From: Candidatus Latescibacterota bacterium
GTDB lineage: Bacteria > Latescibacterota > UBA2968 > UBA8231
Assembly (NCBI GenBank): GCA_965206595.1
Contig: OZ242214.1
Location: 6,462,675-6,526,674 of the forward strand
DNA: 64,000 bases
Direction of reading: 5' to 3'
Below are positions 8,174 to 16,575 of the stretch, piece by piece (the stretch's first letter is position 1; each line of letters opens with the position of its first letter). Below the pieces are notes generated by a model that did not search any database, was not told the DNA's origin, and worked only from the letters and a program-made list of their open reading frames with translations. The position numbers were made by a program, and so were the translations under genes.

Positions 8174-9157
8174 ATGCTTTTTTCCGTCACAACGAATCGG
8201 TGGAGCATGGCCCTCGTCCTGCTCATCGGGCCGGCCCTGTCGGCCGAAGCCCACGTCGGCGGTCGAGTGTTCCCGATTCCCGAACTCACCGACGAAATGC
8301 TGGCCGAGATCCAGCTCGACGGCTTCGTGGAGGAGTGGTCGGATCTGATCGGCGAACCGACCCTGACCCTGCTTGACTTCACCCACGGAGGGGGGGGGGG
8401 GGGGAGCCTCGATCCGTCGGATATCGACTTCCGGATCTGGCTGGCCTGGCACGATGATCCGGCTCGTATCTATGCAGCCTTGGTGGTCGCCGATGACGTT
8501 TACAAGAATACTCACACTTACGATGTGGATTGGGCCACCTCACTAAAAAGTAGCATGGTTGGCGGCAACGACAGTATTCGCCTTGGAGTCGACGGAGATC
8601 ACAGCGGCGGTCCCGGGTTTGTTGATCAATCATTCGAAACAAAGGAACTCGCGGAGGCCGAACTCGTGAAGGTCTCTGGGAAGACCCAGATGTATGAGGC
8701 CATTTCCCGCACTCCTGATGGACCGACCGTGGATGCCCGGAGATCCAGGTACTGGAGCGGGGTCTTCTCCTGGATGGCCCTTCCTCCCTTCGCGGAGGCC
8801 GGCGGCAGGGTAGCCGGAGAAACGCCGGTCATCTGGTCGATCGAGCTGTACATCACGCCGTTCGACCACAGGGGGGAGGAGTTGACCAGCCCCGAAGGGA
8901 GTGTGATAAGCGATCTGAGCGCCGATCGGTTCATCGGCTTCGCGATTGGGGTGTTTGATGAGGACGGGCGGGATCCTCATACGGAACCAAGGAGGTTGAT
9001 ACCGGAAGCCTTGGCGGGTCCCGATCATGAAGTTTTTTCCGATATGTCTGATTTTCGCGCCGACAATTTTCTCGATGGGCTGCTGCTGCCGGCTGGAGGC
9101 ACTGCGGTCGAGTCGGTTACCTGGGGCCGGATCAAGGCTTCCCTGGAACTGAAGTAG
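8174..9157 (+). CDS. Secreted protein, paralog 1 of a four-member family of unknown function; signal peptide MALVLLIGPALSAEA|HVGGRV
   Basis: RBS AAGGAGGAG at 8158-8166. Shares AHSGGRV(F/Y)PI...DEML..I.LDDG..EW..L.GEP..TLLDF, IWLAWHDDP.R.Y, DGDHSGG, YEAI.RT..GP, PPYG..GGGV.GE.PVI..IELY.TPFD and a C-terminal WGRIKASLE with the ORFs at 13463, 14512 and 15586. Confidence 0.8.
   Translation: MLFSVTTNRWSMALVLLIGPALSAEAHVGGRVFPIPELTDEMLAEIQLDGFVEEWSDLIGEPTLTLLDFTHGGGGGGSLDPSDIDFRIWLAWHDDPARIYAALVVADDVYKNTHTYDVDWATSLKSSMVGGNDSIRLGVDGDHSGGPGFVDQSFETKELAEAELVKVSGKTQMYEAISRTPDGPTVDARRSRYWSGVFSWMALPPFAEAGGRVAGETPVIWSIELYITPFDHRGEELTSPEGSVISDLSADRFIGFAIGVFDEDGRDPHTEPRRLIPEALAGPDHEVFSDMSDFRADNFLDGLLLPAGGTAVESVTWGRIKASLELK
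8390..8404 (+). repeat. G15 homopolymer inside the coding sequence of paralog 1 (encodes HGGGGGGS); candidate slipped-strand phase-variation tract
   Basis: ggag + 14 g + agcc read directly. It lies in the loop that is hypervariable among the four paralogs (DFTHGGGGGGSLDPS vs DFSEDQGFPLDPS / DFQTHSNFLPPDPS / DFSSQNDFEALDPS). Confidence 0.7.
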
Positions 9158-9509
9158 CCGGCGTATCGTCCGGTCCATTTCGCAGCCTTCCTTTCAAGCC
9201 CTCGTAACATTGGCTTTCCCTAAAGCATTCCTTCCGGCTTGGCCCTTTCCAGCCCTCCTTCTACTGAACGCACGCCTGGACCGCTCAAGCTGACCGTCTT
9301 CCTTTCGCTATGTTCGCTCCTGTGGCAGCCCCCCGCCGTGGCCCCCTACATGGAATAGAATGAACCGATGGTTAAGCAGCTGGCTGGCTGACTGGTAATC
9401 CAGGTAAGGTGGGGGAAAAACATCCGCCCCATTGTGCTGCCACACTGGCGAATCGCCAAACCGAAGACACCGAGGGGCGCGTCGGGTAGAGCCCCGTTCA
9501 AGACCGCTT

Positions 9510-15489: not shown

Positions 15490-15585
15490 CATGCGTTTCG
15501 GACACTTCGTCCATCCGAAGTCGTTCCAGACGGCCCGATAGGTCGTCCGGCGATATCCGTTCTTGAACTAAAGGAGAGCAAGCCG

Positions 15586-16575
15586 ATGACCCTTGCCCGG
15601 ATCGAGAAACGATGTAGCACCTCCCTGTTCCTGCTCCTTTCGTTGGCCGTCTCGGCCGGCCTGTCCCCCCAGGCAGACGCCCACAGCGGCGGCCGCGTGT
15701 ACCCGATTGCCTATCTCAGCGACGAGATGCTGGAACAGATCCAGCTCGACGACGGCTCGGTAGACGAATGGTTCGAGCTGATCGGCGAGCCGGCCATGAC
15801 CCTGCTGGATTTTTCCAGCCAGAATGACTTCGAGGCTCTTGATCCGTCCGACCTGGATTTCCGCATCTGGCTGGCCTGGAACGATGACCCCGACCGTCTC
15901 TACGTGGCTTTCGTGTCCAGCGACGACGTGTACACGAACAATCACGACTACGAAGCAATTCGGGGATCTCTTCGAGATCTCATACATCTCTATGACAGCA
16001 TCACTCTGGCCATCGATGGAGATCACAGCGGGGGCAGGGGCTGTCCCTACAATTGCCAGATGGAGGATTCGCGGGAGGTCCGTAGCAGAACGCAGCGCTA
16101 CGAGGCCATCGCGCGCACCGTCAGCGGTCCCACCCTGGATGATTCATCTACCAGATATATAACGGAAGAGATCGCCTGGACGGTCCTGCCTCCCTACGGG
16201 CAGGGAGGCGGCGGCGTAGCAGGGGAAGCCCCGACGATCAGCGTGATCGAGTTCTACGTCACCCCGTTTGACCGCTTTTCGTCCGATGACCCCGAGGGGA
16301 GCGTGGTCAGCGATCTGGCCGCGGGCCAGGTCATCGGCTTTGCTATCATGGTCAATGACTGGGATAGTTTTGATAGGGACAATGGGGATACATCGTACTG
16401 GGTACCCGAAGCCATGAATCGCGGTGATGCCGACGACAGGCAGCATGAGATAGATGCCGGTTGGGCGGATCTTTTTCTCGACGGCATCCTGCTGCCGGCC
16501 GGCGCCGGGCCGGAAGACACCGCGGTCGAGTCGGTCTCCTGGGGGCGGATCAAGGCCTCCCTGGAGATGGAGTAA
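15586..16575 (+). CDS. Secreted protein, paralog 4 of the unknown family
   Basis: RBS AAAGGAGAG. MTLARIEKRC...SPQADA|HSGGRVYPI and the family motifs; ends SWGRIKASLEME. Confidence 0.8.
   Translation: MTLARIEKRCSTSLFLLLSLAVSAGLSPQADAHSGGRVYPIAYLSDEMLEQIQLDDGSVDEWFELIGEPAMTLLDFSSQNDFEALDPSDLDFRIWLAWNDDPDRLYVAFVSSDDVYTNNHDYEAIRGSLRDLIHLYDSITLAIDGDHSGGRGCPYNCQMEDSREVRSRTQRYEAIARTVSGPTLDDSSTRYITEEIAWTVLPPYGQGGGGVAGEAPTISVIEFYVTPFDRFSSDDPEGSVVSDLAAGQVIGFAIMVNDWDSFDRDNGDTSYWVPEAMNRGDADDRQHEIDAGWADLFLDGILLPAGAGPEDTAVESVSWGRIKASLEME

Follow-up and report, generated by a model that had tools for sequence, protein, structure and literature searches.

A family of exported proteins with a predicted CBM9/DOMON-like fold and a conserved C-terminal tag in Candidatus Latescibacterota

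The described CBM9 domains, such as CBM9-2 of T. maritima Xyn10A (1I82) and its Caldicellulosiruptor relatives (7NWN/7NWO), are modules appended to xylanase. A stand-alone putative carbohydrate-binding protein is BACUNI_03838 of Bacteroides uniformis (PDB 4JPQ). DOMON/EB_dh domains, as in EbdC (2IVF_C), NxrC (7B04_C) and the cytochrome domain of cellobiose dehydrogenase, bind heme b and serve as electron-transfer subunits, while in histidine-brace copper proteins (LPMOs, CopC, YcnI) a His is the first residue after cleavage. Secreted proteins that are otherwise unrelated can, within one lineage, carry a common C-terminal signal behind a spacer. Examples are the C-terminal domains (CTDs) of T9SS and the PEP-CTERM/exosortase, LPXTG/sortase and GlyGly-CTERM/rhombosortase signals. 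Colicin E9 and Pal bind the propeller of TolB, and the TolB box is a short, disordered, Trp/Gly-containing peptide. Sigma-54 regulons combine a promoter with GG at −24 and GC at −12, palindromes approximately 150 nt upstream, an A-tract between the two and an adjacent AAA+ activator. The sensor domains Reg_prop and Y_Y_Y are known from glycan-sensing hybrid two-component systems of Bacteroides.

No member of Candidatus Latescibacterota has been cultured, and the majority of the proteins that they export lack annotation. Here we analysed a 64-kb stretch of DNA from this group (hereafter the window), which contains four same-strand paralogous ORFs (A–D), each with a ribosome binding site (RBS) upstream, and related loci (Table 1). 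The joint best explanation, to which we assign a probability of roughly 60%, is that the encoded proteins are Sec-exported, stand-alone ligand-binding proteins of the CBM9/DOMON type, belonging to a Latescibacterota family with a portable targeting or docking tag, sigma-54 control and gene conversion between copies.

Table 1. Genes and sequence elements at positions 7058–17284 of the window
Feature	Position	Strand	Description
Degenerate palindrome pair, CCGTATATAATACGG / CCGTATTATATACGG	7058-7092	.	20 bp apart; resemble the TCGTATTAAATACGA palindromes of related loci
IS5-family insertion sequence (IS)	7144-7998	-	855 bp, between the degenerate palindromes and the gene A promoter; perfect 16-bp terminal inverted repeats (7144-7159 and 7983-7998); transposase ORF, DDE_Tnp_1 (7153-7779)
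Putative sigma-54 type -24/-12 promoter of gene A, aGGCACGccttTTGCg	8086-8101	+	starts 87 nt 5' of the ATG
Paralogue A	8174-9157	+	327 aa; predicted signal peptide, mature His27, CBM9/DOMON-like domain; tag TAVESVTWGRIKASLELK (9101-9154)
Sigma-54 enhancer-binding activator gene	9510-12711	-	Pfam: Reg_prop beta-propeller, Y_Y_Y, AAA+ Sigma54_activat
Perfect palindrome TCGTATTAAATACGA	12831-12845	.	candidate activator site for the B-C-D array
Putative sigma-54 -24/-12 promoter of the peptide-B-C-D operon, aGGCACGcttaTTGCg	12979-12994	+	starts 74 nt 5' of the peptide ATG
5'-UTR hairpin CCGGGGTAGCG-ACAGG-CGCGACCCCGG	13010-13036	+	immediately 5' of the RBS; kept across loci
Cys-rich secreted peptide gene	13054-13281	+	75 aa; predicted mature N-terminus HS...; motif CAYxC...CxC; array head
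Paralogue B	13463-14407	+	314 aa; tag TVVEWTTWGRIKASL (14360-14404), stop codon immediately after the tag
Paralogue C	14512-15489	+	325 aa; copy used for the AF2 model; tag TAVESVSWGRIKASLEME (15433-15486)
Paralogue D	15586-16575	+	329 aa; tag TAVESVSWGRIKASLEME (16519-16572); mosaic 5' part with stretches resembling B or C
PD40 (TolB-like) beta-propeller gene remnant, secreted	16660-17284	+	predicted mature N-terminus HSQ...; Pfam PD40

That the four ORFs form a secreted paralogous family was the starting point of the original prediction and was confirmed: they are co-oriented, share pairwise nucleotide identities of 63–74%, and protein A is 51–55% identical to B, C and D. Sec export with cleavage before His, likewise predicted, agrees with a hydrophobic N-terminus and an A-x-A/His junction (the slash marks the cut) in 4/4 copies. 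As judged by the −3/−1 rule only, the signal peptides of A to D would end at AEA/HVGG, ADA/HSGG, AGA/HSGG and ADA/HSGG, respectively. The plan of each protein would run from a signal peptide cut before His through a beta core with variable surface insertions to a spacer and the tag. Of the conserved blocks proposed for all four copies, DGDHSGG is invariant, but IWLAWHDDP reads IWLGWHDDP in B and IWLAWNDDP in D, and PPYG is PPFA in A. Near-identical ends were found for C and D and for the N-termini of B and D, but A is only 50–86% identical to the others throughout, and the poly-G loop placed in the diverged centre is present in A only.

The family is large and essentially specific to Candidatus Latescibacterota. 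We found 612 homologues and, at 50% identity, 925 clusters. The second-largest apparent neighbour family in the clustering consisted of antisense shadow ORFs of the family itself and was discarded. The family occurs in 73 genomic loci, nearly all from Latescibacterota metagenome-assembled genomes (MAGs), with 153 family ORFs across 96 arrays and up to 76 on one contig of 6.78 Mb, a count that overlapping loci may inflate. Its members are single-domain proteins of approximately 300 aa that diverge to approximately 31% identity, and the beta core retains W95/W98, D142-G-D144-H145, Q168-x-Y170, E211 and E219. Profile searches with A–D against Pfam, NCBIfam and PDB sequences returned nothing significant, and a literature search found no paper describing the family in Latescibacteria.

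The fold, originally called unknown, is predicted to be CBM9/DOMON-like, and the fold comparison suggested at that time came out positive. The AF2 model of C (pLDDT 76.5, pTM 0.79) matched the CBM9 structures 7nwn, 1i82 and 7nwo in Foldseek at E-values of 1e-8 to 1e-7, with a probability of 1.0 and a target TM-score of 0.7, and at the level of the fold its modelled beta-sandwich was superimposable on CBM9-2 of Xyn10A. On the basis of this model the four proteins are assigned to the exported beta-sandwiches of the CBM9/DOMON class. At the sequence level, A–D did not reach the Pfam models for CBM9 (CBM9_1, PF06452) or DOMON even at E ≤ 1, and one relative, P0258, gave a weak CBM9_1 match of 17.3 bits (cut-off 23.4) over its IWLAWH...DD segment. 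In contrast to the xylanase-borne CBM9 modules, to which identity is approximately 16%, the family proteins are exported on their own and differ by approximately 80 extra residues in insertions, a His-first N-terminal extension and the C-terminal tag; identity to BACUNI_03838 is 4–8%. Attachment to a glycoside hydrolase was not seen; the sole multidomain relative found, P0258, joins the family domain to a PD40 propeller and a T9SS CTD and lacks the tag. We infer that the canonical CBM9/DOMON site binds a ligand, most likely a glycan, since the CBM9 match was the strongest and sugar-catabolic genes recur nearby.

All four proteins end in WGRIKASL followed by 0–3 residues, as had been noted; in homologues mostly 1–3 residues follow. 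The tag, with the consensus TAVE-xx-[ST]W[GA]RIKA[SA][LF], is the best-conserved segment apart from one core strand: W315 is present in 233/233 complete C-termini, K319 in 231/232 and I318 in 229/233, and column entropy is 0.40 bits compared with 0.93 for the core strands. Its dN/dS of 0.07–0.32 at a dS of 0.25–1.4 indicates selection on the protein, not on the DNA. A spacer of 11–20 residues, rich in Ser, Ala, Glu, Val, Pro and Gly, separates the tag Trp from the last strand and ends with the TAVE motif. In the model of C the tag is not part of the modelled fold, and the pLDDT drops below 50 past the last strand. Given this low confidence, the tail may also take part in a fold-back or strand exchange.

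A search for further proteins with this ending, suggested together with the original prediction, gave none among the other ORFs of the window, where W-G-x-[ILVM]-K near the C-terminus was absent, but the motif recurs on unrelated secreted proteins in related sequence. A separate secreted family of approximately 150 aa, modelled with low confidence (pLDDT 53), ends in [ST]TWGKVKDLF[KR] in 120/120 homologues among the matches listed. In locus L042 an unrelated secreted protein encoded directly 5' of a family gene ends in the tag (24.5 bits with a tail HMM, best control 14.2), and L033 holds a weaker candidate (12.6 bits). The tag is conserved, modular in position and present on at least two unrelated secreted proteins. 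Its presence on unrelated exported proteins makes it look like a new address or docking tag. In 1.5 Mb of related sequence only a few bearers outside the family were found, most of them encoded close to family genes. The tag may label a limited group of functionally linked proteins instead of serving a general sorting pathway. A full-text literature search found no paper containing WGRIK or WGRIKA.

The sequence upstream of the genes shows the architecture expected for sigma-54 promoters: correct promoter spacing, an upstream palindrome and an adjacent gene with a Sigma54_activat domain, as in the sigma-54 regulons described above. Exact matches to GGCACG-N4-TTGC occur only twice in the 64 kb, at 8087 and 12980, at the promoters of gene A and of the peptide-B-C-D operon and in the positions expected. 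Such a site precedes 9/96 array heads, against 1.7 expected, and was found only for the closest subclade. The palindrome TCGTATTAAATACGA has a chance expectation of 0.08 matches; L001, L008 and L021 carry two to three copies of it at the corresponding position and L019 one exact match; in the related loci the palindromes are located approximately 150 nt 5' of the sigma-54 promoters. The degenerate palindromes in front of the IS are likely the original upstream activator sites of gene A, as judged by their resemblance. An alignment of eight loci showed that palindrome, A-tract, −24/−12 element and UTR hairpin are all kept, the hairpin folding at −20 to −27 kcal/mol (z −2.4 to −4.2). An Rfam search gave no relevant match, including for this hairpin, and scans for sigma-70 promoters and terminators remained at background level.

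The adjacent propeller/Y_Y_Y enhancer-binding protein would activate the sigma-54 promoters of the window copies through the TCGTATTAAATACGA palindromes. Intact orthologues of 1072–1115 aa are encoded in L001, L002 and L005. The activator shares its Reg_prop/Y_Y_Y sensor domains with the Bacteroides hybrid systems. Unlike these, its sensor has neither a signal peptide nor a membrane segment and is fused straight to a sigma-54 AAA+ module instead of a kinase with AraC-type output.

Proteins of one PD40 subfamily are encoded beside or inside the arrays in 22 loci in addition to the window, and in the conserved locus the PD40 protein is a lipoprotein (lipobox AGC/GSN). Cys-rich peptides comparable to that of the window head at least 11 arrays in related loci. 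The window locus itself looks partly decayed: the activator gene contains a 1-nt frameshift near 11061 (tblastn frame change at 11062/11060), the IS lies in the control region of A and its removal in silico restores the A-tract spacing of L001, and the PD40 remnant has an internal deletion of approximately 82 codons with a frame change compared with the intact L001 orthologue. Errors in the assembly may account for these marks; alternatively, expression of the locus may be poor here.

Gene conversion among B, C and D, as had been proposed, is supported (p about 0.0005). Eighteen consecutive polymorphic sites are common to B and D (p = 0.0004) and 17 to C and D (p = 0.0008), and the breakpoint between B-like and C-like sequence lies near codon 47. 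Nucleotide identity between C and D is 85–89% in the first 80 codons and 92% at codons 321–340, and their dS is 0.25 at the ends versus approximately 1.1 in the middle. Diversifying selection, the other process proposed, was not supported: regional pairwise dN/dS was 0.07–0.94 in the mature regions, Nei-Gojobori values were never clearly above 1, and sequence variation falls mainly outside the predicted strands of the conserved beta core. Tandem copies would swap sequence by gene conversion while surface insertions drift.

The tag is best understood as a portable targeting or docking peptide that would hold otherwise soluble proteins at a defined location in the envelope, most likely by binding a protein partner. 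The best candidate partner, suggested by gene neighbourhood and one fusion, would be the co-encoded PD40/TolB-like beta-propeller, a lipoprotein in the conserved single-copy locus. Such docking would resemble, by analogy, that of TolB boxes on the TolB propeller, as both peptides are short, disordered and contain Trp and Gly with a PD40-type propeller nearby, but they have no sequence similarity and the interaction here is purely hypothetical. The tag could instead serve export or sorting and allow the proteins to cross the outer membrane or attach to it. A dedicated machine, which might be a minimal T9SS CTD counterpart or a wholly new system, would then recognise the tag and possibly cleave it off. 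We consider this unlikely, though it would fit the extreme C-terminal position behind a spacer, the occurrence on unrelated secreted proteins and the replacement of the tag by a T9SS CTD in one relative, P0258, in which the two appear interchangeable in position. T9SS-type cargo is moreover present in the organism, with CHU_C, FlgD_ig and Por_Secre_tail domains at 40176–44485 of the window and in L060. The tag, however, has approximately 15 residues, compared with approximately 80 in the folded, Ig-like T9SS domain, and it lacks the transmembrane helix and basic tail or cluster of sortase-, exosortase- and rhombosortase-type signals; a hydrophobic stretch after the motif, as in LPXTG, PEP-CTERM or GlyGly-CTERM proteins, is absent from the tag sequences. 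The original view that the tail is distinct from T9SS, PEP-CTERM and LPXTG signals also agrees with the searches of Pfam and NCBIfam, in which it matched none of these or other sorting-domain models, while the true T9SS CTDs of the window were readily detected. The conserved locus yielded no candidate for a processing enzyme, and the idea of TAVE as a junction shared with T9SS CTDs was given up, since only 1/4 of the CTDs in our data agreed with it. Direct anchoring to lipid or lipopolysaccharide as a short cationic, aromatic, amphipathic segment of the MinD/PBP5 kind, with no protein partner, appears improbable. It could draw on the Trp, the two basic residues and the alternating hydrophobic residues of the motif, on its amphipathic moment (0.73–0.89 as a strand, 0.2–0.5 as a helix) and on a short low-confidence helix at 316–322 of the AF2 model. 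But the segment spans 8–9 residues with a mean hydrophobicity of about zero, the strand moment exceeds the helical one, which together with the near-invariant sequence weakens a helical anchor, and generic lipid-binding helices tolerate substitution while W, I and K are 98–100% invariant here. In a family diverged to approximately 31% identity this invariance argues for a specific protein contact.

The second question is what the beta-sandwich binds. The mature N-terminal His, originally noted as common to the family and the Cys-rich peptide, is the predicted first mature residue in 229/253 members (~90%) and stands at a fixed distance from the first strand (H-x-G-D-R-V-Y-P-I). Among the 24 members without it, 11 have also lost His145, compared with approximately 6/229 otherwise (Fisher p = 4e-9, phylogeny ignored). 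A His at +1 is rare in other predicted secreted proteins (5/215), and family operons encode three of these five. The PD40 proteins embedded in arrays begin with it as well, as do several Cys-rich peptides. One could therefore imagine metalloproteins rather than lectins, with the mature His (His33, through its amine and imidazole) and His145 forming a histidine-brace-like site for copper or another metal on a DOMON/CBM9 scaffold, Q168-x-Y170 as second sphere, and the His-first peptide and PD40 protein as parts of the same metal-dependent system. The co-variation of a second conserved His with the predicted first one would recall the histidine-brace proteins, but we rate such a site as quite unlikely. 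In approximately 10% of the members +1 is Gln or some other residue, and His145 persists in 13/24 of these. The co-loss may reflect a single clade, the fold is unlike that of every known histidine-brace protein, and a search of the literature turned up no DOMON or CBM9 fold described with such a site. Heme-b-binding electron-transfer subunits of the DOMON type are extremely improbable: across 270 members neither Met nor Lys is invariant within the domain (M48 varies, and K319 belongs to the tail), so that the axial Met/Lys or Met/His pair of EbdC, NxrC and cellobiose dehydrogenase is missing, as are genes for a partner oxidoreductase. This reading was rejected for lack of the conserved axial ligands. 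A bolder combination would see a new Latescibacterota envelope system, in which the tag [ST]W[GA][RK][IV]K-xx-[LF] assembles secreted proteins on a PD40-propeller receptor and a histidine-brace-type His/His145 centre sits on a CBM9/DOMON fold, a non-LPMO scaffold, co-expressed with a Cys-rich His-first peptide; we hold this to be very doubtful.

If the proteins are read as exported CBM9/DOMON-type ligand-binding proteins, a role that can be tested, the capture of ligands at the envelope of the cell, can be proposed for a family that can reach tens of copies per genome, possibly approximately 70 in one MAG, and that no Pfam or NCBIfam model recognises. The conserved control region, with palindromes, sigma-54 promoter, UTR hairpin and Cys-rich peptide, offers a clean regulon for metagenome-derived or heterologous study. 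The tail is a short, strongly conserved and portable C-terminal motif without counterpart among catalogued sorting signals. If it is indeed an address or docking tag, it would provide a simple sequence handle for the whole set of clients and represent a new means by which a diderm phylum places its secreted proteins.

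The four paralogues A to D share 63–74% pairwise nucleotide identity, and protein A is 51–55% identical to B, C and D. Sequence-profile searches of the four proteins against Pfam, NCBIfam and PDB gave no match. The AlphaFold2 (AF2) model of paralogue C, built from 58 homologues, was confident for the domain (pLDDT 76.5, pTM 0.79), with low confidence in the signal peptide and residues 305–325, and Foldseek matched it to three CBM9 structures (E 1e-8 to 1e-7, probability 1.0). P0258, a multidomain relative, gave a sub-threshold Pfam CBM9_1 match across the IWLAWH...DD segment. 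Because of these matches we assign the modelled domain to a CBM9/DOMON-like fold, one of the folds that the original prediction had proposed to check while calling the fold unknown. Heme binding appears unlikely, since no Met or Lys (possible heme ligands) is conserved inside the domain among the members compared.

A word-indexed search yielded 612 homologues and an exhaustive search 925 clusters at 50% identity, nearly all ~300 aa long, single-domain and without Pfam annotation, with divergence reaching ~31% identity. In one-genome-per-species data, the family is almost confined to Candidatus Latescibacterota MAGs; the few additional MAGs labelled Gemmatimonadetes or Aminicenantes may be mislabelled. 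The fetched loci contain 153 family ORFs in 96 arrays, up to 76 of these ORFs on a single 6.78-Mb contig, with some overlap between loci. The window is syntenic with L001, a locus from the MAG of this contig, the flanks showing 88–92% nucleotide identity.

All four proteins carry the claimed invariant tail, WGRIKASL plus 0–3 residues; a tail of this type is absent from all other ORFs of the 64-kb window. With an entropy of 0.40 bits, the 14-residue TAVESVSWGRIKASL is the best-conserved stretch of the protein save one core strand; among complete C-termini, W315 is present in 233/233, I318 in 229/233 and K319 in 231/232. Between pairs of A–D, synonymous changes pile up in the tail (dS 0.25–1.4) at low dN/dS (0.07–0.32), hence the constraint acts on the peptide rather than on an element in DNA or RNA. 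The tag Trp lies 11–20 residues past the last strand, behind a linker rich in Ser, Ala, Glu, Val, Pro and Gly; usually one to three residues follow the motif, and AF2 leaves tag and linker region unplaced. The tag lacks a transmembrane segment or basic tail and matched no Pfam or NCBIfam sorting-domain model, in line with the proposed distinctness from known sorting types; neither the sorting-signal models nor the literature searched gave a match.

The motif is portable, ending unrelated secreted proteins as well. A separate ~150-aa secreted family, whose gene in a conserved locus sits ~6 kb upstream of the gene for the single-copy member, ends in [ST]TWGKVKDLF[KR] in 120/120 homologues listed. 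In locus L042, an unrelated secreted protein ending in TAVRPASWARVKAMGRVSK is encoded directly upstream of a family gene and scored 24.5 bits with the tail HMM, compared to 14.2 for the best internal-segment control; a further case, in L033, was borderline (12.6 bits). The amphipathic moment of the tag is 0.73–0.89 as a strand and 0.2–0.5 as a helix. We conclude from these sequence comparisons that the tag is probably a modular targeting or docking peptide, and so little variation favours a protein over a lipid as its recognition partner.

One subfamily of PD40/TolB-like propellers occurs near the family in 22 loci. It is encoded inside or directly downstream of arrays in the window and in five related loci (L001, L002, L007, L026, L051). 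In every conserved single-copy locus its gene belongs to the same co-directional cluster, and there it is a lipoprotein (lipobox AGC/GSN, slash marking the cleavage site). In P0258, which lacks the tag, the family domain is followed by a PD40 propeller and a T9SS-type C-terminal domain. TolB propellers bind short, disordered, Trp/Gly-containing peptides. We therefore favour a model in which the tag would dock onto the PD40 propeller, supported by gene neighbourhood and one fusion only.

All four N-termini consist of a hydrophobic signal sequence with A-x-A immediately ahead of His, and cleavage before His was predicted by the -3/-1 rule, as anticipated. The predicted first mature residue is His in 229/253 members, Gln in 14 and others in the rest, and the spacing between this His and the first strand is constant (H-x-G-D-R-V-Y-P-I). 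His145, part of the invariant DGDHSGG loop, is gone in 11/24 members without the N-terminal His versus ~6/229 others (Fisher p = 4e-9, kinship ignored). By a crude signal-peptide rule, only 5/215 other secreted proteins have His at +1, three of these five in family operons. Array-embedded PD40 proteins and several Cys-rich peptides also start with His, bearing out the shared N-terminus proposed for the latter. A minority reading gives the N-terminal His a part in a candidate metal site; its conservation, fixed spacing, co-loss with His145 and His-first operon partners would fit. In the operons tabulated below, every secreted product is predicted His-first although the folds differ, the products being CBM9-like proteins, the Cys-rich peptide, the PD40 propeller and a small protein unrelated to these; among other secreted proteins of the same loci, His is rare at +1. 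Elsewhere in the window, further proteins predicted to be secreted seem Gln-first (AWA/QD, LCA/QD, TQA/QF), recalling the Bacteroidetes Q-rule, which according to PMC5837995 does not cover the whole FCB group.

Diversifying selection plus gene conversion had been proposed for the four genes, and only the latter is upheld. An alignment of 58 members shows conservation in predicted strands (entropy 0.93 bits) and variability in predicted helices and loops (1.5–1.8 bits); the variable 'centre' corresponds to segments that the 189-residue CBM9 module lacks. Pairwise dN/dS was 0.15–0.64 in the region labelled core (columns 216–265) and 0.57–0.94 in the most variable region. As it was not clearly >1 in any pairwise regional comparison of A–D, diversifying selection is not demonstrated, and the pattern is sufficiently explained by surface insertions being under relaxed constraint. 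Gene conversion between copies is supported by unbroken runs of matching polymorphic sites, 18 in B/D (columns 30–47, permutation p = 0.0004) and, directly after it, 17 in C/D (columns 47–64, p = 0.0008), making D a mosaic; C/D synonymous divergence rises from 0.25 at either end to about 1.1 mid-gene. The near-identity claimed for the ends holds for C/D and the B/D N-terminus but not for other comparisons, and 'strictly conserved' slightly overstated the blocks (B has IWLGWHDDP, D IWLAWNDDP, A PPFA). The HGGGGGGS poly-Gly loop is confined to A (window 8402–8425, residues 77–84); the matching surface loop of B, C and D is unrelated in sequence.

Coordinates of features in the window and in related loci
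Feature	Position	Strand	Remarks
Degenerate palindrome pair	7058-7092		Upstream of IS5-family element
IS5-family element	7144-7998		855 bp; perfect 16-bp terminal inverted repeats (GAACCTATCTCAAAAT)
Sigma-54-type site 1	87 nt upstream of gene A		Exact GGCACG-N4-TTGC
Paralogue A	8174-9157	Same as B, C, D	Ribosome-binding site ahead
Sigma-54 enhancer-binding activator	9510-12711	Minus	Reg_prop propeller, Y_Y_Y, AAA+
Sigma-54-type site 2	74 nt upstream of Cys-rich peptide gene		Exact GGCACG-N4-TTGC
5'-UTR hairpin	13010-13036		GC-rich, just upstream of ribosome-binding site; conserved in L001, L002, L008, L019, L021
Small secreted Cys-rich peptide gene	13054-13281		Heads B-C-D array
Paralogue B	13463-14407	Same as A, C, D	Ribosome-binding site ahead
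Paralogue C	14512-15489	Same as A, B, D	Ribosome-binding site ahead
Paralogue D	15586-16575	Same as A, B, C	Ribosome-binding site ahead
PD40/TolB-like propeller remnant	16660-17284		Downstream of D; by comparison with L001
Predicted His-first positions	8252, 13135, 13559, 14608, 15682, 16741		
Further predicted His-first genes	L042 9297-10016		Also PD40 in L001, L002, L007, L026, L051
Seemingly Gln-first secreted proteins	42572-44485, 31918-34809, 37479-40157		
Conserved co-directional locus, ~20 kb	L060 790-20535 (and L052-L073)		Latescibacterota

The exact sigma-54 pattern searched for occurs only twice in the 64 kb, and the activator gene lies between the two sites on the opposite strand; its product has no signal peptide or membrane segment. 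Eight related loci, once aligned, share a conserved control region. The palindrome TCGTATTAAATACGA occurs two or three times, about 150 nt upstream; next come an A-tract and then AAAACAACAGGTTACG, after which the -24/-12 element, a stable hairpin in the 5' UTR and the ribosome-binding site complete the region. Sigma-54-like sites precede 9/96 array heads versus 1.7 expected, all nine in the closest subclade. The predicted sigma-54 regulon is well defined. The hairpin has no Rfam match; in some loci its flanking leader could pair with the Shine-Dalgarno region. Small secreted Cys-rich peptides (62–101 aa, types CAYxC...CxC or YCW..C...RCRC, no Pfam match) lead at least 11 arrays, their genes lying after the sigma-54 promoter and ahead of the first family gene (e.g. 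L001 9571, L002 8494, L007 9665, L008 9561, L031, L035, L050).

In the window, the IS5-family element interrupts the A-tract that separates the palindrome pair from the gene A promoter, so that the activator sites now lie about 1 kb instead of about 150 nt away. The activator gene, intact in L001, L002 and L005 (1072–1115 aa), is split here by a 1-nt frameshift near 11061: either it is a pseudogene or the sequence is in error. Relative to L001, the PD40 remnant has ~82 codons deleted and a frame change, and the fourth family copy after PD40 is absent. These defects could stem from genuine decay or from misassembly. Elsewhere, at about 56.2–63.0 kb, pattern matches recur at offsets of about 3,212–3,215 nt (56695/59910, 57190/60405, 57796/61008, 58456/61668), and two minus-strand ORFs of about 1,200–1,300 aa (56249–60094 and 59464–62937) cluster together, pointing to a large gene duplicated in tandem.

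The conserved L060-type locus encodes, in order, NTP-transferase, LarA-like protein, a protein of unknown type, the small tag-bearing protein, acyltransferase, PD40 lipoprotein, PMT_2 glycosyltransferase, two unknowns, the single-copy family member, two large T9SS-CTD proteins and two further unknowns; homologues of the large T9SS-CTD proteins lie at about 31.9–47.2 kb of the window. GFO/IDH/MocA oxidoreductases (18 loci) and enolase-superfamily enzymes (16; raw counts) recur near arrays, which would fit a carbohydrate context. Our readings of the ligand, of the partner of the tag and of what the N-terminal His does are inferences; the finding on the four genes is real, and they belong to a new, unannotated family inside a known fold class.
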